A DNA stretch of 64,000 bases from an uncultured Pirellulaceae bacterium (GTDB taxonomy: Bacteria > Planctomycetota > Planctomycetia > Pirellulales > Pirellulaceae), in the NCBI GenBank assembly GCA_964397295.1, contig CAYNJG010000004.1:8302-72301 (forward strand), given 5' to 3'. This document shows, piece after piece, positions 39,154 to 53,296 of this stretch. The notes beneath the pieces are model-generated. The model was not told the origin of the DNA. It worked only from the letters and a program-made list of their open reading frames with translations, and ran no database searches. Numbering within the stretch: the stretch's first letter is position 1; each line of letters begins with the position of its first letter. The position numbers and the translations under genes were made by a program.

Positions 39154-40599
39154 CTATTCATCGCCGCTGCGGCCACGGCCACCACGTGCACCGCCAGCGC
39201 GAGGGCGGTTGAGTTTTGGTTTGGGTTTCTCAATGCCCAATTCGGCCTCGAGGGTGTCCGCCATGTCCGAAACCTTCCTTTGGAAGGTGCCGGTTCCTAG
39301 ATCCTCTTCGTCTGCCAAAGTTAGTAGTTCTTTAATCTGGCCGTCGAGGTCTTTCAGATCTTGATCTTCTGGCACAAGTGCGACGAATTTCTTAACTCCT
39401 TTATCGACGCAGCCCAATCGGTACTTCAACTCGCGACGAGCCTCCGTGAGGAGAGGGTCTTCCTCTTCCTTTTCTTCTTCATCCTCTTCGGCACCACCGC
39501 CACCACCGTAGCCGTCGCCGCCGCCATAACCACCACCGTAGCCACCGCCGTATCCTCCTCCGTCACCACCACCACCGCCATAGCCACCACCGCCGCCGCC
39601 GCCATAGCCACCGCCATAACCGCCTCCGCCGCCGTAAGCGCCGCCACCTCCTTCGAAGGCGCCACCTCGCTCTTTATGACGGTTTAGCAATCGCGTGCTA
39701 ACTTCGCGGCAAACATAGGCTGTGGTGGTGCTGAAGCCTTTTGCAGTATGTCCGACATCTAAGCCGTCCGTTGACTTAATGTTGAGTTTGCCGAGTGCCT
39801 CGATCGCGGCACAACGCTTTGAAATCGATGCGTCTTTATCATGGATGGACTTGTCCATCATCTTGGCGATCGCATTGTCTTTTCCCGCCCAACCGAGTTC
39901 ACCCAGGATCTCAATCGCACGACGTTGCATCCAATCATGCCCCGATTTCGTTCGAGTCGTTGGGCATTCGGACTCGGCGATTTTGACGGCTGCACCAGCA
40001 AAAGTCGTAGCAGCCTTTGCTGGCATTCGCGAGCCAGCGCGGTGCAGCTTTGCGTGTCGAAGAACGCCGATTAACGCGGCAACTTGAACCGGATCACTGG
40101 TCGAGCTCATGCCTCGAAATAAGGTTCCGTATGTTTTCTTGTAAGGAACAGGTAACGTAGTTCTAGTTGCTTCTTTCTCGTTAAGCGAACCAATAAGTAG
40201 CATCGACGTATACTGTGCGGGATACGGATAGTTCTTTTTCGTGTCTGGCGTCGCGTTGGAGATACTTTTGCACCACGTGTGTAGGTCGTTGATCATCGAC
40301 GCATGGGTGCTTGGATTTTGCTTATAGGCGGCCTCGAGTTCACGCATGACTTGCGTCTTGACATTACCGAGTGTAAGCCCGTCGGAAACCTGCGGAGCCA
40401 TGGTGCTCGCCAAGAGTGACTTAACGTAATAGTTCATCGCCGCGGTTTTGTTGTACGCACTATCGCCCTTGATGAACTTTGCAGCTTCGCGTTGCGTGGC
40501 GTTTTTGGGTAGCGGTTTGATTCTCTTCTGCGCGGAACAAACTTGCGTTGTCGCGGCGATCAAAATGCAAACGCATGTGACGTGATAGAACCTTGTCAT
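39154..40599 (-). CDS. Secreted hypothetical protein with Gly/Tyr low-complexity region and acidic tract
   Basis: The start is taken at MTRFYHVTCVCILIAATTQVCSAQ (40599). It contains GGGGAYGGGGGYGGGYGGGGGGGYGGGGGDGGGYGGGYGGGYGGGDGYGGGGGAEEDEEEKEEED. The N-terminal part is helical-repeat-like. Confidence 0.6.
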   Translation of the reverse strand: MTRFYHVTCVCILIAATTQVCSAQKRIKPLPKNATQREAAKFIKGDSAYNKTAAMNYYVKSLLASTMAPQVSDGLTLGNVKTQVMRELEAAYKQNPSTHASMINDLHTWCKSISNATPDTKKNYPYPAQYTSMLLIGSLNEKEATRTTLPVPYKKTYGTLFRGMSSTSDPVQVAALIGVLRHAKLHRAGSRMPAKAATTFAGAAVKIAESECPTTRTKSGHDWMQRRAIEILGELGWAGKDNAIAKMMDKSIHDKDASISKRCAAIEALGKLNIKSTDGLDVGHTAKGFSTTTAYVCREVSTRLLNRHKERGGAFEGGGGAYGGGGGYGGGYGGGGGGGYGGGGGDGGGYGGGYGGGYGGGDGYGGGGGAEEDEEEKEEEDPLLTEARRELKYRLGCVDKGVKKFVALVPEDQDLKDLDGQIKELLTLADEEDLGTGTFQRKVSDMADTLEAELGIEKPKPKLNRPRAGGARGGRGRSGDE

Positions 40600-41143
40600 A
40601 CCCACTTCTCCTACACGAAATTGGTTGGATCCAAATTCTTGATTTTGGTGGCGTTTTGCACGCCGATTACCCATAAATACAGAGTAGTTGTTTCTCGAAG
40701 GAAATGTCAACTGCTGGGGAATTTACTGCGTTTTTTCAGCGGTTCGTCTTCTAAATTACTCGGATGTTCGATCACCGAAACGCCATCAATCCTCGAAGCC
40801 AAACGCGATTCTTACAATTGTTTGACATTCTGTCGCTGTAGCCGGTCGAGTTTGCCGAGTGTTCGGATCCGTTGTCACCGACTCGTTCTCGCGAACATCT
40901 GTTACGGAAAGATGTAGCGAATGTCTGTATGGCAAGAACAACTACGCTTAGCGAGTGCTTTGCCCGACTTGAGATACGGCGGTGGTTTCGCTCCTCAACG
41001 ATTGCGTGGTCAACGTGCGCGACCGAAGGGTCTTGGTTTGCCGTAATTGGCTGATAGTTAGCGTTCTTGACAGCCAAGCCGAAAACCTGATACCGTTTAA
41101 ACGCTCGAAGTCGCTCGACCAGCGGCTTCGATCCAGCATTGCT

Positions 41144-41216
41144 GGGGGATTAGCTCAGTTGGGAGAGCGTTTGGCTGGCAGCCAAAAGGTCGTCGGTTCG
41201 AACCCGTCATCCTCCA
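41144..41216 (+). tRNA. tRNA-Ala (anticodon GGC)
   Basis: Folded by hand. Acceptor GGGGGAT/ATCCTCC includes the G3:U70 alanine identity pair. D arm GCTC-AGTTGGGA-GAGC; anticodon arm TTTGG-CTGGCAG-CCAAA; T arm GTCGG-TTCGAAC-CCGTC with one U:U mismatch. CCA is not encoded. Confidence 0.9.
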
Positions 41217-41279
41217 CTTCTCGTAAGTCATTGTCAAAAGCCGCTTTGCGGTTCTCGGGTGTGACGCATTTTGATGAGC

Positions 41280-41303
41280 GCAAACCAGTACATACTGGTT
41301 TGC
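41280..41303. repeat. Perfect 11-bp inverted repeat with 2-nt spacer
   Basis: GCAAACCAGTA-CA-TACTGGTTTGC lies between the tRNA and the integrase remnant. Confidence 0.8.
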
Positions 41304-41313
41304 GGCTTTCAAC

Positions 41314-41607
41314 ATGAAAGTTCACACCATGCCACGTCTTGAAAAGTCTCTTCCGCGCCTGGGAATCCACAAGCCAAGCGGCCAGTTCTGCGTCGATCTA
41401 AGCGGCCGCTGCATCTACCTCGGTAAGACGAAGCGTATCGCCAAACAGAACTACGATATCGCCGTTGCCGAATGGCTGTCCAACGGTCGCCAACACCCCG
41501 TCGCCAAGTCCCAGCAAGTGACCGTCAATAAGGTGATCCTCGACTATGTGAAGTTCGCCAAGACGTACTACGTCAAGCGGGGCAAACTCACAAGCGAGTA
41601 CCTGTGA
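41314..41607 (+). pseudogene. Truncated tyrosine-recombinase (phage-type integrase) gene, N-terminal ~97 codons only
   Basis: MPRLEKSLPRLGIHKPSGQFCVDLSGRCIYLGKTKRIAKQNYDIAVAEWLSNGR.. resembles the N-terminal arm-binding region of planctomycetal site-specific integrases. No catalytic domain follows. It sits directly 3' of a tRNA. Confidence 0.6.
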
Positions 41608-41731
41608 CGCGGGTTGTCACATTGCCAGACAGAGTAAGAACAAGCTCTCTCGTTTCGACGCGAAAGGTTTCTGCACTATGTGGCACCTGCCACTCTGCAA
41701 AAGCGAAAGAGTTTTGGTCAGCACCGCTATT

Positions 41732-41756
41732 GGAGGGTCCCTCCACGGGGGCCCCC
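41732..41756 (-). terminator. GC-rich palindromes downstream of hsdR (candidate terminator)
   Basis: GGAGGGTCCCTCC and GGGGGCCCCC palindromes lie 40-65 nt 3' of the hsdR stop. There is no clear U-tract. Confidence 0.35.
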
Positions 41757-41796
41757 AAGGGATCTGAAAAGCGACACATTACCAACTGGACTGAAC

Positions 41797-44700
41797 TTAG
41801 ACCCAAGAATCACATAGTATGGCGGCTTGCTCCAAAACTAGCTTTACGGCTTCGTCTTGCAAGTCTGGCGGATACCCATGCTTCTTTAGAATCCGCCTTA
41901 CTATCACCCGGATCTTTGCACGTGCTGACTCTCGAAGCGTCCAGTCAATGGAGACATTGGCTCGGACCTTCATAACAAGCTCGGTAGCGATCACCTTTAG
42001 CTTGTCCTCGGTTAATGCTTCTACCGCTGTGTCGTGATTTGCCAGCGCGTCATAGAAGCAGACTTCATCATTGTTGAGGCCCAGCTGCTCACCACGAGCT
42101 TCAGAGGCTTGAATGTCTTTCGCCAATCTTATTAGCTCGTCGATGATCTCTTGTGTCGTTATGGCTCGGTTGTGGTAGGAGTTCAGCGTAGCCTGTAGCA
42201 TCTCGGCAAAGGATCGTCCTTGAACAATGTTCTTCTGCTTGCGGATCTTGATCTCATCGTTGAGCAATTTGCGAAGCAACTCTACCGCAACATTCTTGTA
42301 GGGCATGCTGCGTACTTCGTCGAGGAATTCATCCGATAAGATAGAAATGTCAGGGCGTTCAACTCCGGCGGCGGTGAATACATCGATCACCTCTTCGTCT
42401 GCCGAGATCACAGCTTTCGCGACCAGTTGCCGAACTGCGTAGTCCAGCTGGCTTGAAGACTTACCGTTGTCGGTGTACTTCCGAAACATGGTGCGGATGA
42501 TTTGGAAGAACGCCACATCTTCCTTGATCGATTCGGCATACTCTTCGGTCGGACATAGAGAAAACGCTTTGGATAAGTTGCCTACAATTGCGTTCCAACG
42601 TGCTTTGCCGTCTTGCTCGCCAAGGATGAAGTCTTGTCCCGCTTGAAGCAACGTGATTCGCTCGGCGGGAGTTCCGGTTGTCCATTTCGACCAATCGAAT
42701 CCATGCAGTATGTCGCGGCATTGCTCGTGGTGTTTACGCAGGGCTTCGAGAGCTGCCTCGGTATCAATGGTGGTCTGCCCCTGTCCGCCACTGTCCGTGT
42801 ACGTCTTCAGGGCTTTCTTTAGCGAATCGCCGATCCCAAGATAGTCGACGACCAATCCACCCGGCTTCTCTTTGAAGACACGATTCACACGAGCAATTGC
42901 TTGCATCAGACCATGGCCTTGCATCGGCTTGTCGATATACATCGTGTGCATCGACGGAGCATCAAAACCGGTCAACCACATATCGCGGACGATCACCAGT
43001 TTGAAGTCGCTGTCGGCTTTTTTGAAACGAGTCGCGAGTGCTTTGCGGCGATTCTTGCTGCGTGAATGCTGCTGCCATTCCGGTCCGTCATCCGCCGACC
43101 CTGTCATGATGATCTTTAACGCTCCCTTTTCGTCATCTTCATCGTGCCAATCGGGGCGAAGTCTAATCAGCTCGTTGTACAGGTCCACACAAATACGGCG
43201 GCTCATGCAGACGATCATGCCCTTACCTTCGATGCCTTCCGCCTCCATTGCATCGCATCGCTTTTCGAAGTGATCGACCAGATCCTTAGTCATCACTTCT
43301 AGTCGATTGTCATCGCCAACCATCGCTTCAAGCGCTGCCCACTTGGCTTTTACCTTGGTGCGTACCGTTTCTTCGGCACCCTCGGTGACTTCTTCAAACT
43401 CCTCGTCGATCGTCTCAATGCTGGAATCATCCAACGCCATCTTGATCACGCGACTCTCGTAGTAGATCGGAACGGTCGCTTTGTCATCGACAGCTCGCTG
43501 GATGTCGTAGACGCTGATGTAGCCTCCGAAGACGGCTCGGGTGTTCTTGTCGTCAAGCTCGACCGGTGTCCCAGTGAAACCAATGAACGACGCATTGGGT
43601 AAGCCATCGCGGATATTACGAGCGAATCCATACGCGATCGTCTCTTCGCCCGTTTCCTTGTTCTTCTTTTTGCGAGCCGTAAAGCCGTATTGGCTTCGGT
43701 GGGCCTCGTCTGCCATGACGACAACGTTTTTGCGATCAGTCAGGACGGGAAACTGCCCTTCCGCTTCCGCGAACTTGTGGACGGTCGTGAAGATGACACC
43801 ACCAGAATTGACTTGAAGCAGCTCACGCAAGTGGTCTACCGAATCAGCTTGAATCGGAGTCTGCCGTAGGATCTCACTGCAGCGTTGAAACTGGCCGAAC
43901 AGTTGATCGTCCAAGTCATTGCGGTCGGTCAGTACAACCAACGTTGGATTGTTCATCGCTGGTGAGGAAATCACGAGACCCGAATAGAAGAGCATCGTGA
44001 AGCTTTTGCCGCTGCCTTGCGTATGCCAGACAACACCGACCCTTCGGTCACCTTCTTCTTGTGTCGCTTCGATAGTGCGTTGAAGCGCTTGTCGAGCTGC
44101 GTGGAACTGATGGTAACCGGCAAGAATCTTGTAGACGCGATCGCTGTCTGTATCGTCCTCGAACAACACAAAGCTCTGTAGCATATCGAGGAAGCGTTGC
44201 TTGTCGAATACGCCCCGAATCAGCGTTTCCAATTCGAGAATACTGGCGACCGGTTCTTCGGTATCGATCGTCGGCCAAGTTTTGAACCACTCTGGCCCGG
44301 CTGTGAGCGATCCAATCCTTGCCTTTTGACCATCGCTCGTAACGAGTACCTCGTTGTAGGTTAGCAGCGTTGGCAATTCCTTCTTGTACGTTTGCAACTG
44401 CTTGAACGCTTTTTCGACCGTAGCCGTTTCATCGCCGATATTCTTTAGCTCAATCAGCGCCAACGGCAAGCCGTTTACAAACACGACGACATCAGCCCTT
44501 CGCTCGTTTCGTCCCTCTTTTACCGTGAACTGATTCAACGCAAGCCATTCATTGTTCTCTGGTTGGTCGTAGTCGATGAGTTTTGCGATCTGACCGCTGA
44601 TCGTGCCATCGTCACGTTTGACTTCGACAGGTACACCATCACGCAACAGCTTGTGAAAGTTACGATTGGCGGCAATCAATGACGGTGAGTCGATGCGCAA

Positions 44701-44919
44701 CACTTGCCGCATCGCTTCGTCGATATCGTCCGACCCGAGTTGCGGGTTCAAACGTCTAAGAGCGGTTTCCAAACGCTCAATCAAAACAACGTCGTTAAAC
44801 GAGTCTCGTTCTGCGTTGTCGCCGGAAGGTGCGATCTCGGGGCCATAGAGCGTCTCGTATCCTAGTTCCTCGAACCAAGACAACGCGGCTTCTTCGACGG
44901 TGGCTTCGTTAATCGTCAT
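41797..44919 (-). CDS. hsdR: Type I restriction enzyme R subunit
   Basis: The start is taken at [22 protein letters not shown] (44919). Walker [14 protein letters not shown] box [11 protein letters not shown], motif FTGTP and a long C-terminal helical domain typical of HsdR. Confidence 0.95.
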
Positions 44920-45845
44920 CAATCTAGCTCCGTTGTGTCTTCTTCGGACGCTGCCGATTGTCGATAGTCGAGCCCCGCATCTTGCCAATCTGCATAAGTC
45001 CTGCCGTCCGAAAGCTTCCATCGCAACCGACCGTTGCTATTTCGTCCGGCGACGACGGCCGCTGCAGCGCTTGGACTGCTAAAGGGTATGTCTTCGACGA
45101 AAACCAAATACTCAGGGTCATCGCTATCAACGAGCTTCTCATCGGCAACCAGTTGCTCGCGAAGTTTTCGATACGAGGTCCAGGAATCAACTCCTGCTTT
45201 CTGGCTGTACTTCCTTTCAGAACGACAAACTCATCGTCCATCAATACCGCGTTCGCATCTGCCCCAGCTACATGACATTCGAAAACTGGACTGGTCGATT
45301 CTGTTGACTTTTCGCTGGTCGAAATCATTGGTCGCGGATTCAGGAATTGGTGTCCAAGTACAGGCAAGATCATTTGAACCTGACTAAGAAAGAACTCCAT
45401 ATCAGCGACATCTGGCTCAGGGAGAGGTGGGGGAGAATGAGCTGTTCCATTTGCAATGGAGGCTCGGCTTCGCTGTGTTGCACAGATTGATCAGTCGGCT
45501 TTCCAAGTATCGAACGTGGGACTTCGTGAGATTGTCGTCCTTGCTGGTAATCAGAATAACACGCGTGAAGAAGTCTTTCGCTTCGTCGCTATCGTGCTTC
45601 TTGATGCGAGTGAAAACGTTGTCGCCCTCACCAATGTAAACGCGATCTTGTGAGGGCGATTCTGGATCAGAGCCGATTAACAGATAAATGCCAGTGCGTT
45701 TCGCTTCGTCGCGTTTGCCGAGTTCGGCAAGTCGTGACCTTGGCGCAACTACGACCTTGCCCGTCCAGTTGATGATTTCGGCCGTCAGGATGCCACTAGG
45801 CACGCCATCGGCGAGGTACAGTCGAATCGTCTTACCCGTCATCAT
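44919..45845 (-). pseudogene. GIY-YIG nuclease / DUF4357 accessory gene, disrupted by two frameshifts
   Basis: Three ORF-track pieces (45417-45881, 44924-45400, 44919-45107) join into one protein when the frame is shifted near 45468 and near 45190. GIYLLIG..VYIGEGDNV lies N-terminally and [28 protein letters not shown]-terminally. Confidence 0.8.
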
Positions 45846-46092
45846 GGCAATCTCCCGTTGTCTTGTCTGTGTCCCGTTCATGGCCCCTTTCTGTTAGCAC
45901 ATAACGGACTCCAACGCCGGTCGTCCCGTGCTTGTCGAAGATGCCTTTTTCCACAAGTTCTGACAGCTTCTCGAATTGGAACACCGTGAAGAACTGCGAC
46001 AGCAGCGGATCGCTGCTCACGTAATCTTTGACGCGATTACGGAACTCCTGAAGTTCCTTCTGAACGCTGCTGATGAAGATCTGCCGACTCAT
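45832..46092 (-). pseudogene. Collapsed remnant of a DUF4062-type ATP-binding/wHTH accessory gene
   Basis: MSRQIFISSVQKELQEFRNRVKDYVSSDPLLSQFFTVFQFE (DUF4062-like N-terminus) runs directly into ..LVEKGIFDKHGTTGVGVRYVL (C-terminal wHTH-like tail). The several-hundred-aa middle expected for such proteins is missing. Confidence 0.5.
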
Positions 46093-46314
46093 GGTGTTAA
46101 TCTGGTGAACCTTCGTTCTGTCCCGTGTCTCCAACTGCTGGCATGTGTCCAATGAAACACGAACTTCCCCCAAGATTCACGCTCGATCCGAATTACGTCG
46201 ATATTGCGGGCTGTGTTAATTTAAAAAACAGGGTTGGCAACCTATACGCTTGATTGTTAGGCTCCCGTGACCGATACTTGAAACAACTCATCTGCCATGT
46301 GTAGAAGGAGTACC

Positions 46315-46338
46315 GAAGCCGTCCCTTGGGGCGGCTTC
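46315..46338 (-). terminator. GC-rich hairpin immediately 3' of the 166-aa gene
   Basis: GAAGCCGTCCC-TT-GGGGCGGCTTC starts 7 nt after the stop at 46345. No U-tract. Confidence 0.45.
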
Positions 46339-46344
46339 AGCTGT

Positions 46345-46845
46345 TTACGGGGTGTATTCATCTCTTTCTTTTCGCAGTTTTCTCTTCCGAGACTCCTCGG
46401 GTGTGCAGTACGCGGTTATGAACTGCAGGTATTGAAATCCATCACGTTGTCTGGTCCGTTCGGCTAGCACCACAAGATATCTTTCGGCAAACCAAAACAG
46501 AACGTGTGTGTTCCGTCCTCTCTGGTTCTTCCACACGTTGATCTCACCAGCAACGCCTGCATTGTCGATAATTGCTCTTGGCCAAAGGATGCGTTCGCAC
46601 CGTCTCATTTCCGGCGTGCGTTCTTCTTCGTTTGGCCCTTCAGACATGCAATGCCAAAACCCTGCGAACTTCCCGTCGTACATTGGATCGCGACGACAAC
46701 GGATCCATTTACCTTCAAATTGTGGTTGGCTGTCAATCATGCTGTTTTTGAATGCATCGTAAATAGCAGCTAAATAAAGCGCCCAATCTCCGTCGAAGTC
46801 TTCGAGTGTGATTAACTCAGGCAACCATGTGTTGTCGTCACTCAT
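46345..46845 (-). CDS. Hypothetical 166-aa protein, partner of the DUF3800 gene
   Basis: The start is taken at MSDDNTWLPELI (46845), 8 nt after the DUF3800 stop. No motif recognised. Cys/His/Trp-rich patches (FWHCMSEG, RRCERILWPR). Confidence 0.6.
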   Translation of the reverse strand: MSDDNTWLPELITLEDFDGDWALYLAAIYDAFKNSMIDSQPQFEGKWIRCRRDPMYDGKFAGFWHCMSEGPNEEERTPEMRRCERILWPRAIIDNAGVAGEINVWKNQRGRNTHVLFWFAERYLVVLAERTRQRDGFQYLQFITAYCTPEESRKRKLRKERDEYTP

Positions 46846-46853
46846 GGGAAGCC

Positions 46854-47552
46854 TCAGCGCGATTGCCAGACGAGGAGGTTGAGTTTTGGCTCTCGAAGCC
46901 ACGTTGATCGTTGCAGCGAAAAGCCCGTCCGCTCTCGAACCCTTTCTATGAGCGCCAATTTTGCCGCGCTTGTTTGCAGTCCGCGATTGGAATACGTAAC
47001 AGCCCCAATTAGCAAGTCTGCCAACTGCATCAACTCCGATTCGTGAGATCGAATCTGCTGGACACGCCGGACAATGTTCCCATTGCCATCGTAGTTGGCA
47101 TCTCGAAGGACTTCCTCTAGTTTTTGGCGTTTCCCCTCGCTACGAGTGTCCTTGATGTCCAAATAGATCGAGTAGTGTTGCGTGGGGTCGATAATTGGCT
47201 CCAGCAGCGTGAAGCACATTTTGTAGTACCAATCGTCGTGCGTTTGGTGAAAGCGGTTGTGTTCCAACTGGGTCTTGTCGGGAACGACTATGCATCGAAA
47301 ATGCAAGTCGTCGTCATCAAGAAAGTAGTCAATGATCGCCCGGTAAAAGTCGAGTTTTGCTGGAGAAACTTTTGTCCATTTGAACTCGAATTGAGGTGAC
47401 AACCCATGAGACTTTTGTATGTCGCGAACTCGAATCGAGATCTCGCGAGCCTTCTCTTCGGGGCACCAAATAGCGCCCAGAGTCATGGGTTTGATTCTGT
47501 CGTGCTCCAAGTGACAACTTTCGTCGAGGTAGACATTAAACGACTCAGCCAT
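46854..47552 (-). CDS. DUF3800 domain protein
   Basis: 232 aa with an N-terminal FNVYLDESCH (DES motif) and a C-terminal ELMQLADLLIGAVTY (QxxD motif). These are the two signatures I associate with DUF3800. Confidence 0.7.
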   Translation of the reverse strand: MAESFNVYLDESCHLEHDRIKPMTLGAIWCPEEKAREISIRVRDIQKSHGLSPQFEFKWTKVSPAKLDFYRAIIDYFLDDDDLHFRCIVVPDKTQLEHNRFHQTHDDWYYKMCFTLLEPIIDPTQHYSIYLDIKDTRSEGKRQKLEEVLRDANYDGNGNIVRRVQQIRSHESELMQLADLLIGAVTYSNRGLQTSAAKLALIERVRERTGFSLQRSTWLREPKLNLLVWQSR

Positions 47553-47731
47553 TTGCGAGGGCCTCCGAGGTGACGGTGAGCAAATAAAATGCGAACGGTG
47601 AATGGTGAAGAGTGAAACTTTTCAACCTCATACGTTTACCCTTCTCTCTTCAACCTTCACCTTTTTTGTCTCGCCGGTTAGAAACTTAGCAATGAGCGTG
47701 TTGCGAATCAGCGGTAAGGAGACCATTTTCA

Positions 47732-48253
47732 TTACCCCCACACGATATAGGCTGGATTCACGGATCGCCCGCACTGCGTGCAGGTGGGTTCGCTGGCGGT
47801 GACGGTGCCTTTCTCGCAGTGGGGGCACAAGTCGTTGTCGAGTAGCCACATGACTTGATCTCCCATGCTGACGCCACATTCGGGGCAGGTTGGGTTGCGG
47901 TCTTTTGCATCCCAACGCCCCCAGCAGTCAGGGCAATGGTCGTGGGGGACGATGCTGAGCTGGCCGTGGACGACGTAGCGGTGCGGGGATGAGTCGCCCC
48001 AACATTGGCGCGCAGGCGATCCGCTATTGGTTGCGAGACCGGTTTGTAGCAGCGGTAGGCTCTTTTCTCGCTCCTCGTCGAAAACCTGAAGGCTGATGTC
48101 GAGCGTCAACGAATACGGCTCTCCAAGAATCCGACTGATTTCGGCCAGCTTGGCTTTGAGTTGATCGAGTGTTTCACCTTCGATCAACTCACTCACCTGC
48201 TCGGAAATGTCGTCGATGAGGGGATCGATTTGTTCAAACTCATTCTTTTCCAT
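47732..48253 (-). CDS. Double zinc-ribbon protein with acidic helical N-terminus
   Basis: 173 aa with CPDC-12aa-CPEC and CPHC-11aa-CTQC. The start lies 3 nt after the stop of the hsdS relic frame. Confidence 0.6.
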   Translation of the reverse strand: MEKNEFEQIDPLIDDISEQVSELIEGETLDQLKAKLAEISRILGEPYSLTLDISLQVFDEEREKSLPLLQTGLATNSGSPARQCWGDSSPHRYVVHGQLSIVPHDHCPDCWGRWDAKDRNPTCPECGVSMGDQVMWLLDNDLCPHCEKGTVTASEPTCTQCGRSVNPAYIVWG

Positions 48254-48256
48254 GTT

Positions 48257-48379
48257 TCATCCTTCAACCTTGCACACTGGCGAGGGCCTGAGCGCGGCGG
48301 GGACAGGCAACTCGTCGGAAAGAAGCGTGGGTAGCAGCGTGTTGCGAAGGGTGCCCAGCGTCGAGGACGCTTGCGCGGA
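48257..48379 (-). pseudogene. Relic of an hsdS 3' end (distal conserved helix)
   Basis: It translates to [29 protein letters not shown]. The C-terminus of the intact HsdS is [30 protein letters not shown]. Same orientation, separated by the REP element. Confidence 0.75.
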
Positions 48380-48383
48380 CCTA

Positions 48384-48461
48384 TTGAAACACAGAGGCAC
48401 AGAGGACACGGAGTCTCGCATGCGACATTCCTCTGTGATCTCAGTGCCTCTGTGTTTCCAA
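48384..48461. repeat. Palindromic REP/MITE-like element, full copy
   Basis: The arm TTGAAACACAGAGGCACAGAGGACACGGAG is inverted as CTCTGTGATCTCAGTGCCTCTGTGTTTCCAA around a loop containing TCGCATGCGA. It lies 22 nt 3' of the hsdS stop. Confidence 0.8.
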
Positions 48462-48482
48462 ACGTTTTGTCGGCTCATGCCA

Positions 48483-49871
48483 CTACTTCCTGTGTGCGGT
48501 GAGGGCGGCAGGGACGGGCAACTCGCCGGAGAGAAGCTTGGGAAGCAGCGTGTCGCGAAGGGTGCTCAGTGTTGAGGACTCCCACTCGTTGGCGTCCATG
48601 CGTTTGAAGATGCCATCAACCAGTTCTCCAAACGCATCAAATACCTCGTCGCTCGGTTTCACAAACGTTATTTCGTTCATGCTTCGTTGACTTAGCTTGG
48701 GAATTGTTGACCCAGTGAGGTAGCCGCTGATGTCAGTTGCTCGAAGCGTGAACATCAAGAATCGAGTCACGCCATCGTGGTCGCCCGAAAGAACATGGGC
48801 GTGGTTGTTTACCCAGAACCTTCCTGTCGCGCGAAACGCGATCGGTGTGTTTCTCGTTCGTAGGTTCTCGCCATCTTCGGCGACGAGCAAATACTCTCCG
48901 TCGTAGATGAATTCGTTAACGTGATCGACGACGCCCGACGCTCCGTAATACGGATATGGTCCAGCCACACGATCCTTTCCTTTGACCGGCTGCCGCAACT
49001 TGTCGTGGTTGTTCGCAAAGTCCCCGAGCCGAACAACTTCCCAGCCCGTTGGAATCTTGCCGAGGTCGGAGTCTTGGAAGGTGGAGGGGAAAAGAGCCGA
49101 GAGGGAAGGTGGAAGGGTGAAGGGCGAATACGCGGGCGAGGAATCGGGGGAAAGGTCGCGAGGGGGCGGCGAGGTCGCCGTGGCGGCTCCGGTTCCCGAT
49201 GGCGGATTGGCCTGCTGGCCACTCTTGCTGCGCACGGGGTCGAAATCGACGAACCAACTCTTGAAGATCGCCCGCGCAAGGGACTCCAGCGTCGCATTCA
49301 TCCGACGGTTCAACTCGATCTTGTCGTCCAACGCACCAAGGATCGACGCGATCGCTCGCTGTTCTCCGATGGGAGGCAGCTTGAACTTGAATGCTTCGAT
49401 GCGTTTTGGAGCGGTGTGCAGGATTTTCGTCCCAGTCGCACCAACGTACAGCTCGCGATTAAATTCCGACCAAAGGAAAAGCCAGTAAAGAAAGTCGGGA
49501 TCAACGGCATCGGCTTCCTTGACGACCACTTTACCGAGACGTTGGTTGTGCAAATAAGTTCGACCGTCGTCGGGTATGCGGCCCGGAATTCCAAGAATTT
49601 CTCCGCCTGCTGTCTGGCACGTCATTACTAGCAGAATGTCTCGCGGTTTCAGGTCGTATTCGGCGGGATAGTCTTCGCGATATTCTTTAACCGTCGTTGA
49701 TTCAAAACGAAACCCGCCGGTGTATTGAAAGTTGCCGATGTTCACGACGATCGGCTTGCCCGAAAGGTCTTCAGAAAAGAACTTGCTCTTGAACGGCCAG
49801 CCATGGGTAATGCTGACGACATCGCCGAGCATGACTTCTCGCCATTTTCCGTTTGGCGACTCATCCGCCAT
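48483..49871 (-). CDS. hsdS: Type I R-M specificity subunit
   Basis: The start is taken at [13 protein letters not shown] (49871), overlapping the hsdM end by 11 nt. Two target-recognition domains are separated by the central helix ([50 protein letters not shown]). The distal helix is at the C-terminus. Confidence 0.9.
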
Positions 49872-51588
49872 AGCCCAACGCCTCCAGATTGGACTTGATG
49901 GCTTCCTCCAAACGCGACGACTCCTCGAACTGACCGCCAAGCTCGCCGACCAAGCGACGCATCTTGTCCTCAAACGGCTCGCCGTCGTCCTCGACTTCTT
50001 CCGCTCCCACGTAACGGCCCGGCGTGAGCACGTGGCCGTGTTCGGCGATCTCGGACTGCGTCGCACTTTTGCAGAAACCGGGGATGTCGGAGTAAGTGTC
50101 GAGTGACGAGTTGCGAGTGTCGAGCAGAGGGTTCTCTTGCCACGCGTGGTAGGTGTCGGCGATGCGGGCGATGTCGGCGCCGGTTAGCTCGCGGTGGACT
50201 CGGTCGATCAGCGTGCCCATTTTGCGGGCGTCGATGAACAGAGTCTCGCCTTTCCTGTTTCGGAATCCCTTGGCGGCTTTGTCTCGTGTCAGGAACCACA
50301 GGCAGACCGGAATCTGCGTGCTGTAAAACAACTGACCGGGCATCGCGACCATGCAATCGACCAGATCGGCTTCGATGATCTGGCGGCGGATGTCGCCTTC
50401 GCCCGACTGGTTACTGCTCATGCTGCCGTTGGCCAGCACGAATCCGGCCGTGCCCGTCGGACTGAGATGGTGGATGAAGTGCTGCACCCATGCAAAGTTG
50501 GCGTTGCCTTTGGGAGGCGTGCCGTATTTCCAACGCACGTCTTCTTCGTTGCGGTGCCAGTCGCTGTCGTTGAACGGCGGATTGGCGATGACGTAGTCGG
50601 CTTTGAGGTCTTTGTGCAGGTCGCGGCGGAAGGTGTCGGCGTGCTCTTTGCCAAGGTCGCCGTCGATGCCGCGAATCGCAAGGTTCATCATCGCCAGACG
50701 TCGAGTGGTGGGGTTGGATTCCTGACCGTAGATGGCGATGTCGCCTTTGATTTTTGGAGCGGCGGTTTTTCCTTTGCCCTTCTTGCCGTTTCCATTGCCG
50801 GAGGCGTGGGCTTTGATGAACTTGTCGGCCTGGACGAACATACCTCCGCTGCCGCACGCCGGGTCGTAGATGCGGCCCTTGTACGGGGCCAGCATTTCCA
50901 CCAGCGTGCGGACGACACAACTGGGCGTGTAGAACTGGCCGCCTTTCTTGCCTTCGGCGGATGCGAATTCAGAGAGGAAGTATTCGTAAACTCTACCGAG
51001 GATGTCTTTGGAGCGATGGGCAGTTTGTGCGTCGGACGGCGTTGTCGAGTCGCCGTCAGCGTCTGGCTTAGCGATCATCTCGATGGTGCCGATCAAGTCG
51101 ATCAGCTCGCCGAGTCGCTGCTTGTCGAGTGCCGGCCGAGCGTAGTTTTTGGTGAGCGTGCCTTTGAGCTTCGGATTGTCCCGCTCGATGGCATCCATTG
51201 CGTCATCGATCAGCTTGCCGATTGTCGGCTGTTTTGCGTTGTTCTGTAGTTCCAGCCAGCGAGCTTCCTTCGGAACCCAGAATACGTTTTCGGCTCGGTA
51301 CTCGTCGGCGTCCTCCGGATCAGCTCCTTCATACTCGCCTTCGCCAGCGACGAGCTTCGCGTGGTGCTCATCAAACGCATCGCTGATGTACTTGAGGAAG
51401 ATCAGCCCAAGCACAGTGTGCTTATACTCGGCGGCGTCCATGTTGTTGCGAAGTTTATCCGCAGCTAACCAGAGCTTGGCTTCAAAACCAAGATTTGCAG
51501 TAGTGTCCTTCTGTTTCTTGGTGCTGGGCTTCTTAGTTGCTGCCTTCTTCTTGGTTGCTTTTTTCTTAGCTGCCTTTTTCTTGGCCAT
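49861..51588 (-). CDS. hsdM: Type I R-M N6-adenine DNA methyltransferase subunit
   Basis: 575 aa with an HsdM N-terminal domain ([25 protein letters not shown]), motif [11 protein letters not shown] and motif [11 protein letters not shown]. An unusual Lys/Ala-rich N-terminal tail is present. Confidence 0.95.
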
Positions 51589-52048
51589 CCGGTAACCTAG
51601 CCGTCAATAAATTCGCAAAAGTATGAGGTCTGAATCTAGCAGAAACTAAAGCTATTTGCTCGCAACCTTCGACACCCCACTACAGAATTGCGACTGAAGT
51701 TGGAGTGGTTATTTTAGATTTCAAGTTGTCAGGTTGCCAAGCTCTTCTTAACGGAACAACTCTTACATTGGTGGCAATCTGCTATCAAAACCATCACTGC
51801 CGAAGAATGAGTCTGAGGTGGTCTAGCAACGTTTGAACGCAGAGCTCAGAGAAATCTTGGTTCTGGACAATGGGTGCCACATACATAGCTCGCTCTAGCC
51901 AGGACAACTCTCTTCACTTTCCAAAAGACTTCGTTGCTCCAGATTCGAGGCGTTGGTCTAGCGAGTGCTTGGATGGCGGCTTTCTGATCGCAATTGAGCG
52001 ACCGGAGCTTTTCGGTGGCGCAGGATTGCAAATGAATTAGCCAGCAGG

Positions 52049-52354
52049 TCAGCGAATGAAGATGGCAATAACCCCAACTAGCAAGAAGAATGCCGACGTC
52101 CGTACAAACCTACCGAGCAAGCAAGCCGCGCCGGCATACCAAGAAATACCGGTCACGTACCACACTACGGGAACCCAGAAATATGAAAGGAAGCTTTGCT
52201 GCCCGCGGCCTTCCCAGACGAATTCCATGAATAGTAGAACCGTGGCGTAACACATCACGATGATCGCCACGATCAACCAAAGCATACCCACAGCAACAAG
52301 GCCGGAATGAACCCCTAAGTCAGTCGCCAAGTTGTCGTACTTGTTTGGCATCAA
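52049..52354 (-). CDS. Small polytopic membrane protein, hypothetical
   Basis: 101 aa with three hydrophobic helices. Confidence 0.4.
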   Translation of the reverse strand: MMPNKYDNLATDLGVHSGLVAVGMLWLIVAIIVMCYATVLLFMEFVWEGRGQQSFLSYFWVPVVWYVTGISWYAGAACLLGRFVRTSAFFLLVGVIAIFIR

Positions 52355-52450
52355 TGCATCCTAGAATAGATTGCAGCCGCCTAACGTCATCGATAACCGG
52401 GCCGGTGCGGTTGATCTTCCATTTTGAAAAACGCGTATTCGATCCGTTTG

Positions 52451-52969
52451 TTAGGCAGCCGATGGGCCGAGTACGGTTCTAACCAATGCGGCCTTAGGCG
52501 AATGTCTACGATCTGAACGACCAATGCAAACGAAACCGAGTAAGATTAGAAACCTCCAACAGCGTACGGTCGGCTCAGGCACCATACGGACGGGGAACGA
52601 GCAAGTAGTATGATCGGCACAAAATCCAACGATATCGCCGTTTGTTGCACGTGGTGAAACAAAGATATCGAGTGTCAAAGGACCATCAATAGTCACAACA
52701 TCAGCGACGTTCACAACTGTTACGGACGACATTGGATCTGCGACATTGGGAATGATGAATTCAAACGGTGCTGGCGATGAACCTGGCATTAACTCGCCAC
52801 CAGCAGAAACAAACTCGAAGCCACGAGTGGTGTATGTACCTTCAATAGGCGAAACAGTGATGGGTCCGCCGCCGACTGGCCATGTGCCGATTATATTTTC
52901 CTGCGCGGACAGACGCGAAGCACAAACACACGGCAAAATGATCAGGAACAGACGAAATGCGTTTCGCAT
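52451..52969 (-). CDS. Secreted hypothetical protein with PEP-CTERM-like anchor
   Basis: 172 aa with a signal peptide. VPEP followed by a hydrophobic helix and a basic cluster (MVPEPTVRCWRFLILLGFVCIGRSDRR), though ~20 extra residues follow. Confidence 0.45.
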   Translation of the reverse strand: MRNAFRLFLIILPCVCASRLSAQENIIGTWPVGGGPITVSPIEGTYTTRGFEFVSAGGELMPGSSPAPFEFIIPNVADPMSSVTVVNVADVVTIDGPLTLDIFVSPRATNGDIVGFCADHTTCSFPVRMVPEPTVRCWRFLILLGFVCIGRSDRRHSPKAALVRTVLGPSAA

Positions 52970-53296
52970 GCTATCTCCTTCGTGATTTCGAATTAGGCCA
53001 CCTAACGTTACCGGTAGCCGGGTACGAAGAGTTGATTATGTGTAAACAGAACCATCGGCATCCGACTGTTTTGAGCACTCCGCGTTTGTTCAATCGTTTG
53101 CTATCCGGCAGTTTTCGCAGTGACAATTAGGGCCATCTTCAAATGGTCTCGCTGGTGGTTTTCATTCATCGATCGTTGGCCGGATAACATTTAAAATCTC
53201 GCGACAAGTGATTCCCCATTTGCTTACGCCCGGCTTCGCGACTCCTGTGCATTTTTTGTGTTATGCCCGGTTGCGCTTCAGGGTTTAATCCACACT

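Follow-up and report, generated by a model that had tools for sequence, protein, structure and literature searches.

What are the genes that lie between hsdS and hsdR in the type I restriction-modification (R-M) operon of an uncultured Pirellulaceae bacterium, and do they belong together? In the 64,000-nucleotide (nt) stretch of DNA analysed here (hereafter the window), an initial annotation made from the sequence alone had described three intact open reading frames (ORFs) at this place, encoding a protein with two zinc ribbons, a DUF3800 protein and a 166-residue protein, and had proposed that they formed an undescribed three-gene defence cassette. Overall, the observation was confirmed and the interpretation was supported in part. 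The locus is an ordinary intact member of an already catalogued family, PDC-M04 of PADLOC, which includes RlfA and RlfB of phage P1, and it entered the operon as a cassette of its own; the Zn-ribbon gene forms another cassette and is not a partner of the pair. The protein pair itself had been catalogued before, and what is new here is the link to P1, the exclusion of the Zn-ribbon gene and a conserved small RNA gene, predicted on the opposite strand and convergent with the pair.

A catalogued gene pair and its relatives in phage P1

The three ORFs were found as described, including the 8 nt between the stop codon of the DUF3800 gene and the ATG of the gene for the 166-residue protein (at 46845, favoured over an upstream GTG at 46902 by the alignment of homologues), and public metagenome assemblies of the same scaffold carried identical ORF calls. 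The DUF3800 signatures that had been recognised in the sequence of the 232-residue protein held, as it matched Pfam DUF3800 (PF12686) at 46.6 bits (cut-off 21, E 7.5e-12) and kept the DE and QxxD motifs of that family (D10-E11 and Q176..D179). The same protein matched the PADLOC model PDC-M04A (PDLC04353; E 4e-95, residues 1-231 on profile positions 1-228 of 232), and the 166-residue protein, for which Pfam gave no match, matched PDC-M04B (PDLC04357; E 3.6e-57, residues 3-165 on profile positions 3-157 of 162); the Zn-ribbon protein was matched by Pfam only. NCBIfam matched none of six proteins searched. Thus, the description of the pair as undescribed did not survive the comparison with PADLOC. 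Nor is the 166-residue protein the orphan that it had been taken for: its family came to 1,616 clusters at 50% identity in an exhaustive search, with few exceptions stand-alone proteins of 150–190 residues, a word-indexed search listed 150 matches, almost all of 160–190 residues, and a scan of one genome per species found relatives in at least 494 species. Among the top 150 representatives of this family there were no domain fusions that hinted at function.

The PDC families are 145 untested ‘guilt-by-embedding’ candidates taken from genes within BREX, DISARM and type I R-M systems (Payne et al., bioRxiv 10.1101/2024.01.29.577857; PADLOC-DB v2). The window pair agrees with PDC-M04 in its full-length matches to both models and in the arrangement of its genes, which stand side by side on the same strand within a type I R-M operon. 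The PADLOC models used here describe two proteins only; neither the convergent small RNA nor the connection with P1 rlfAB is part of them. In the literature searched, no paper mentioned PDC-M04 by name and no experimentally defined role was found for the pair, in agreement with what the initial annotation had supposed; the papers found on the DUF3800 domain demonstrated no function for it.

The linkage of the two genes was examined in the 80 loci most similar to the query, with genes called by a simple heuristic, window proteins compared by tblastn and the nearest called neighbours scanned with Pfam. These loci came from Planctomycetota, Alpha- and Gammaproteobacteria, sulfate-reducing Desulfobacterales and relatives, Nitrospirae, Chloroflexota, Bacteroidota, Spirochaetes, Elusimicrobia and others. 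A DUF3800 gene stood immediately upstream of the gene for the 166-residue protein in 78 of 78 assessable loci (the remaining two start their contig at the match), and in 34 of the 78 the two genes overlapped by 4 nt (ATGA-type), with spacing that ranged from -29 to +35 nt. The suspicion that the two genes are a self-contained unit was therefore borne out, and the pair is supported as a self-contained and conserved two-gene unit. A strong association with type I R-M was likewise supported: within 10 kb of the pair, HsdM was encoded in 30, HsdR in 28 and HsdS in 21 of the 80 loci, the nearest upstream neighbour was HsdS (Methylase_S) in 20 of 73, and the nearest downstream neighbour was HsdR (HSDR_N) in 15 of 72. 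Further neighbours included GmrSD, TIR, PLD, Mrr, RhuM and T5orf172. The expectation that relatives of the 166-residue protein would co-occur with DUF3800 and a Zn-ribbon gene near R-M genes was borne out in part, in that DUF3800 was constantly present and R-M neighbours were frequent but a Zn-ribbon gene stood beside the pair in none of the 80 loci.

Searched with tblastn, a phage collection yielded P1 rlfB and P7 rapB (E 1e-19 to 5e-18) as well as a match in Bifidobacterium phage Bbif-1; about 100 P1-like plasmids matched too. RlfA was 47% identical to the window DUF3800 protein (BLASTP E 4e-82) and RlfB 37% identical to the 166-residue protein (BLASTP E 1e-29), the P1 proteins matched the PDC-M04A and PDC-M04B models at 1e-95 and 1e-51, respectively, and PHROGs 3732 and 16230 matched the pair, the 166-residue protein belonging to the latter. 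In P1, where rlfA is annotated as a DUF3800 protein and overlaps rlfB, the order of the genes is that of the window, as it is for rapB of P7 and its upstream neighbour. The surroundings differ, since P1, a phage-plasmid, has the genes by its lytic replicon and controlled by C1, whereas those of the window are in a chromosomal R-M operon. It was previously shown in a CRISPR interference (CRISPRi) screen that rlfA and rlfB are non-essential for P1. Eight regions of P1-like phage-plasmids have been described as highly variable, rlfAB-pmgF among them, and in one P1-like element the rlfAB region is replaced by ORFs that include a toxin.

Structural models were made for both proteins with AlphaFold2 (AF2). 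The DUF3800 protein, modelled with a mean predicted local distance difference test score (pLDDT) of 89.4 from a 31-sequence alignment, had RNase HII, H2 or HIII as its best 24 Foldseek matches in the Protein Data Bank (PDB), with E from 4.8e-6 to 8.4e-4, template modelling (TM) scores of 0.43–0.57 and a probability of 1.00. It thus models as a type 2 RNase H fold, in line with the literature, where DUF3800 has independently been termed RNase H-like. Positions D10, E11, D92, D132, D135, E171, Q176 and D179 were invariant in the family alignment. Compared to its best structural matches among the type 2 RNases H (RNase HII, H2A and HIII; E 5e-6, TM ~0.5), the window protein, which has an N-terminal D-E on strand 1 and additional conserved carboxylates, differs in its partner, in its RNA and in its sequence relationship, as it had no Pfam RNase H match and no PDB relative in a profile search (E<=10). 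In the model of the 166-residue protein (pLDDT 92.9), helices lead into an antiparallel sheet of four strands, and a helix forms the C-terminus; the (near-)invariant residues of its family are rich in Arg, Trp, His and Lys, as in GK(E/F)AGFWH and RxPDxRRCERIxW. Foldseek found no PDB neighbour of this model at E<=1e-3, a PDB profile search with the family gave no meaningful relative, and the BFVD database contributed a single uncharacterised homologue. A likeness to RelE-like and BrnT proteins was non-significant (Foldseek E 0.4-1) and was dropped. Of the nuclease folds that the initial annotation had suggested looking for, one was accordingly predicted for the DUF3800 protein and none was found for its partner.

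A predicted convergent small RNA

Folding of the 70 nt past the stop codon in all loci gave the first sign of a common two-hairpin element, which was present in 78 of 78 assessable loci and in P1, always on the strand opposite to the genes. Its common layout is cTTGAC, 17 nt, (g)ATAaT; then ~6 nt; then AGCUCAUCUACCAUGUGUAGAAGGAGUAACGA, a GC-rich hairpin of variable sequence and AGCCUUUU. The two promoter boxes are of the sigma-70 type and stand at a fixed distance from the RNA (68 loci aligned), and an independent consensus scan reported a matching promoter in the locus L010 (TTGACT-17-GATAAT). In the window, the copy of the module, comprising the pair, the small RNA and its promoter, spans 46250-47552 (Table 1).

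Table 1. Positions of the module, of the genes around it and of their remnants in the window
Feature	Position	Strand	Remarks
hsdS	48483-49871	-	
hsdS 3'-end relic 1	~48289-48356	-	before Zn-ribbon gene; 58 of 67 bases identical
Zn-ribbon gene	47732-48253	-	173 residues; four CxxC pairs; Pfam DZR_2 and DZR
hsdS 3'-end relic 2	47670-47707	-	between Zn-ribbon and rlfA-like genes; aligns to hsdS 48483-48560
rlfA-like gene	46854-47552	-	232 residues; DUF3800 protein (PDC-M04A); predicted type 2 RNase H fold
rlfB-like gene	46345-46845	-	166 residues; partner protein (PDC-M04B)
Tail of putative small RNA	46339-46348	+	AGCUGUUUAC; overlaps rlfB-like stop codon 46345-46347
Predicted terminator hairpin	46315-46338	+	GC-rich; from folding and comparative alignment
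Stem-loop 1	46286-46311	+	near-invariant CUCAUCUrCCAUGUGUAGAAGGAG
Putative small RNA (~65 nt)	46285-46348	+	antisense to cassette; transcript ends inferred
Predicted small-RNA promoter	-35 46250-46255; -10 46273-46278	+	TTGATT, 17-nt spacer, GATACT; from alignment of 68 loci
DUF4062 stub	45832-46173	-	29 N-terminal residues left
PDC-S14 pseudogene, piece 1	45417-45881	-	GIY-YIG/DUF4357-like
PDC-S14 pseudogene, piece 2	44924-45400	-	GIY-YIG/DUF4357-like
hsdR	41797-44919	-	

The secondary structure was supported by comparative evidence. RNAalifold predicted 2 helices with 18 pairs, in which 97.3% of cells were paired and 13 pairs showed compensatory changes (103 cells); none of 500 shuffled alignments reached the observed values, and slid controls gave 38-56% pairing. 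There were 153 G-U cells vs 10 A-C cells, and canonical pairing was 97.3% on the strand opposite to the genes vs 87.3% on the coding strand, and this excess of G-U over A-C indicates that the plus strand is the structured one. Single-sequence folding of the window element (minimum free energy -27.1 kcal/mol, z -3.4) was blind to strand, as the other strand had a z of -3.5, and the strand was therefore set by the comparative G-U counts. A covariance model built from the element gave exactly one match in the 64-kb window (46277-46368, plus strand, 85.3 bits), a match in P1 opposite to the genes (64.9 bits), and one match in each of 31 pair-bearing loci searched, again opposite to the genes and including L081, a locus outside the training set. 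It gave no match in the loci that carry the Zn-ribbon gene only.

These results change the meaning of the GC-rich hairpin that follows the pair. The hairpin is real, but it had been taken as the terminator of the cassette, and we found no terminator-like site on the minus (cassette) strand, where the hairpin has no U tract; the U tract is on the plus strand across loci. From its sequence, the hairpin is predicted to terminate the convergent small RNA and not the cassette, and the case teaches that a hairpin after a gene needs a test of both strands before it is labelled a terminator.

In P1 (NC_005856.1), the predicted small-RNA gene lies directly after rlfB, between rlfB and pmgF (~52907-53011, complement; L094 4455-4559). 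An independent consensus scan placed a promoter (TTGAAA-17-TAGATT) and an intrinsic terminator (14 pairs, tail AGCTTTTTAT) there, which bracket ~70 nt. The detailed P1 record has no annotation at this site, the region was found in 121 complete E. coli genomes with an RNA feature in none of the 12 records listed, and the literature searched held no report of a P1 small RNA at rlfB.

Rfam 15 was scanned with the window at 40500-52500 (E<=1), with window 46200-46420 and the P1 locus (E<=10), and with 10 loci (gathering score). The element was unmatched in the window, in P1 and in nine other loci, and only tRNA genes reached the gathering score. Sub-threshold matches were taken as chance, including those to snoU83B (25 bits vs a threshold of 35) and, on the plus strand, to ‘sar RNA’ (21 bits vs 43), and several others likewise. 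A structured RNA adjoining a DUF3800 gene has precedents in eleven motifs, DUF3800-I to -XI, which lie near DUF3800 genes in either orientation and often end in an intrinsic terminator (Weinberg et al. 2017, PMC5737381). At least DUF3800-I and DUF3800-IX are contained in Rfam 15, and neither was listed at E<=10 for window 46200-46420 and the P1 locus or at the gathering score in the 10 loci. The small RNA gene is listed in no annotation checked, and it may or may not be identical with one of the Weinberg motifs II-XI. No later work on the DUF3800, drum or skipping-rope RNAs turned up in the literature searched.

Proposed function and competing explanations

The reading that we prefer, to which we give an even chance, is that the module is an RNA-controlled, RNase H-like system that acts against mobile elements and is independent of the R-M enzymes. 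RlfA would be a metal-dependent nuclease with the modelled type 2 RNase H fold and intact conserved carboxylates, and it could attack RNA-DNA hybrids, or nucleic acids of other kinds, that belong to invading phages or plasmids. RlfB would be a basic adaptor, rich in Trp and Arg, with nucleic acid as its ligand, which might be the small RNA itself. The small RNA, constitutively made, would restrain the pair, either by binding the proteins in the manner of an RNA antitoxin or as an antisense RNA to the 3' end of the rlfAB transcript, and the nuclease would be released when infection shuts down host transcription or degrades RNA. None of these steps would depend on the R-M enzymes that happen to surround the pair in the window. 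The enrichment of the pair in defence loci suggests selection through defence.

Because stem-loop 1 is near-invariant across phyla, its sequence argues for recognition by a conserved protein or target and not for plain antisense control. A more tentative proposal, which we hold with the odds somewhat against it, is that the module cannot do without the near-invariant ~65-nt RNA, which RlfB, RlfA or both would bind as a third component. The module would then represent a new class of RNA-controlled RNase H-fold immune effector, with the RNA acting like an antitoxin or as a cofactor, conserved from E. coli phage P1 to Planctomycetota; none of the annotations and papers checked contained it. With the small RNA, the module would have three parts, not two, which makes it testable in E. 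coli, where standard P1 genetics could show if an RNase H-like nuclease is held back or guided by the RNA, and if phages or plasmids are excluded by the module. The analysis connects the untested candidate PDC-M04, two unexplained non-essential genes of P1 and a very strongly conserved small RNA with a predicted promoter and terminator.

DUF3800 also occurs in type VII retrons, in the TPR-DUF3800 proteins of Cas12a2/a3 and in Cas13-associated Csx32, always beside RNA-based immune machinery, and it stands beside the eleven orphan RNA motifs as well. These contexts have other architectures (fusions to reverse transcriptase or to TPR), and the RlfB partner has not been reported in them.

Several observations weigh against the reading of the module as an RNA-controlled defence system. 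More than half of the 80 loci had no R-M genes nearby and some of the neighbours were housekeeping genes; moreover, the context frequencies may be biased because these loci were chosen by similarity. The window copy of the small-RNA promoter is weaker than consensus (8 of 12 positions) and was not reported by the consensus scan, the window U tract is also weaker than consensus, and the ends of the transcript were inferred. Pairing of the small RNA with the translation start region of either gene was not supported, as RNAduplex scored it no better than shuffled RNA (-18.1 vs -16.9 kcal/mol) and showed no conserved site, and antisense control alone leaves the near-invariant sequence of stem-loop 1 unexplained. 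Finally, P1 rlfAB lies just after repL/oriL behind a C1-controlled operator, and both genes are noted there as ‘possibly associated with lytic replication’.

This last observation suggests a different explanation, namely that the pair is a replication-linked module of mobile elements in which RlfA serves as an RNase H for R-loops or primers and the conserved element is a priming- or origin-type signal, the copies inside R-M operons being hitch-hiking remnants of mobile elements. The RNase H-like fold would suit such a role, and the G-U asymmetry (G-T in DNA) would fit a strand-specific single-stranded DNA signal too. We nevertheless consider it unlikely. The genes are dispensable for P1 in the CRISPRi screen and are variable or replaced in P1-like plasmids, chromosomal pairs are co-oriented with the genes of the hsd operons that hold them, and the commonest neighbours include no replicon gene. 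The sigma-70-type promoter at a fixed distance, together with the U-tract terminator, points instead to a transcript.

With RNA-controlled toxin-antitoxin (TA) systems, namely type III (ToxIN) and those of type I whose antisense RNAs overlap at the 3' end (e.g. bsrG/SR4), the module shares a small, strongly promoted, cis-encoded RNA that adjoins or overlaps the 3' end of a gene whose product may be harmful. The module might be a selfish addiction cassette that stabilises an island or plasmid and brings the host no anti-phage benefit. A compact, mobile and coupled operon with such an RNA would be expected of an addiction cassette, as would its presence on P1-type plasmids, and the best Foldseek matches of the partner protein, non-significant as they are, were to RelE-like and BrnT toxins. 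Yet type III systems have a tandem array of antitoxin repeats upstream of the toxin gene, whereas the window RNA is a single copy, downstream and on the opposite strand; type I toxins are small and hydrophobic, whereas the window proteins have 232 and 166 residues and soluble folds in the models, and only the terminator tail of the RNA overlaps the coding sequence. Unlike the RNAs of type I and type III systems, the window RNA has a sequence conserved across phyla, which plain antisense control does not need. As the pair is also enriched in defence loci, addiction appears improbable to us as the whole explanation.

A role as an accessory of type I R-M, in modulating restriction, in restriction alleviation or in processing of cleavage products, is very unlikely. 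It would explain why the pair sits exactly between hsdS and hsdR in many phyla, yet most loci, and P1, have no type I R-M system nearby, and the same slot hosts unrelated cassettes (GmrSD, DUF4357, Nmad2, SLFN and RhuM). PrrC/RloC anticodon nucleases occupy hsd loci, and the initial annotation had cited them as the classical precedent for genes wedged into this place. The window pair shares with them its location inside a type I R-M locus, but its proteins matched no PrrC/RloC model among the PADLOC matches and the predicted fold is RNase H-like.

The Zn-ribbon gene and the surrounding operon

The proposal that the Zn-ribbon, DUF3800 and 166-residue proteins form a single three-gene system with its own terminator hairpin, which the adjacent and co-oriented genes of the window had suggested and to which L081 adds a Zn-ribbon homologue in the operon of the pair, but downstream of it, has almost nothing left to recommend it, as the Zn-ribbon gene was found in none of the 80 loci, a relic of the hsdS tail intervenes between the two in the window, the gene precedes other cassettes in other genomes and the hairpin belongs to the opposite strand.

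The Zn-ribbon family itself comprised 33 matches, whose named members are all Planctomycetota, with all eight Cys invariant and an acidic helical N-terminus. The gene was found in or next to type I R-M operons in 6 of 7 distinct contexts, usually right after hsdS and ahead of varying cassettes. In the window, the cassette downstream of it is the rlfAB-like pair, and in L081 it is a different DUF3800 paralogue of 292 residues, with the pair upstream in the same operon. Elsewhere, it was followed by DUF4357, GYF and GmrSD genes (L082, Posidoniimonas), by Nmad2 and DUF4268 (L085), by GmrSD (L086), or by SLFN/HATPase_c_4, Dev_Cell_Death and HIRAN (L088). In Fuerstiella marisgermanici (L083 8001-9968), in the absence of an R-M system, an intact 481-residue DUF4062-HATPase_c_4 gene begins 4 nt on. 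The window DUF4062 stub may therefore be the remnant of a Zn-ribbon partner that was parted from it when the rlfAB-like cassette was inserted. Since the Zn-ribbon protein recurs in R-M operons and had no PADLOC match, it may be an unlisted R-M-embedded candidate itself.

The boundaries between these cassettes are marked by two relics of the hsdS 3' end. The translation of the relic between the Zn-ribbon and rlfA-like genes, IRNTLIAKFLTGE, resembles the C-terminus of HsdS, and from its alignment the relic would be a scar left by recombination where the cassette begins on its upstream side. The other relic makes up most of a called 73-residue ORF (48257-48478), which is probably not a gene. A similar hsdS-tail relic was found in L001 (7754-7840). 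The presence of two relics in the window points to successive, separate insertions of cassettes by recombination at the conserved hsdS tail, and the slot between hsdS and hsdR may be seen as one in which cassettes are swapped, each insertion leaving an hsdS-tail relic.

The remaining genes of the operon bear out the description of an intact R-M system with decayed additions. HsdM, HsdS and HsdR had full Pfam domain sets and look complete. Both neighbours that had been called degraded proved to be so: the DUF4062-like gene is reduced to its stub, and the two pieces of the GIY-YIG/DUF4357-like gene, which cover positions 17-144 and 167-241 of the 320 of the hidden Markov model, are one PDC-S14 gene split into a pseudogene. 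For comparison with the latter, an intact DUF4357 gene follows the Zn-ribbon gene in the Posidoniimonas locus.

A second, divergent DUF3800 paralogue was present besides the rlfA-like gene in two planctomycete R-M operons (L001 6191-6859 and L081 8328-9206). The paralogue of L081 had no PADLOC match, and neither paralogue had an adjacent match to the small RNA.

The two specificity domains of HsdS (a 527-residue ORF) have between them a Pro/Ser/Ala-rich low-complexity stretch (residues ~275-325). Between the hsdS stop codon and the first relic is an inverted repeat, long but imperfect (AAACACAGAGGCAC...GTGCCTCTGTGTTT, ~48390-48450), which could be a repeat element or a terminator. Just past hsdR are a tRNA gene (41144-41216, plus strand) and a short ORF (41314-41607, plus strand), which we suspect to be an N-terminal fragment of an integrase; tRNA genes flank the R-M operons in two more loci (L081 2971-3044 and L017 2786-2858), and these operons may therefore occupy tRNA-targeted islands. 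Further on, a 518-residue ORF (39154-40710, minus strand), unrelated to the cassette, has a long tract of Gly/Tyr-rich repeats (GGGYGGG...), after which come an acidic segment and a tail rich in Arg and Gly.

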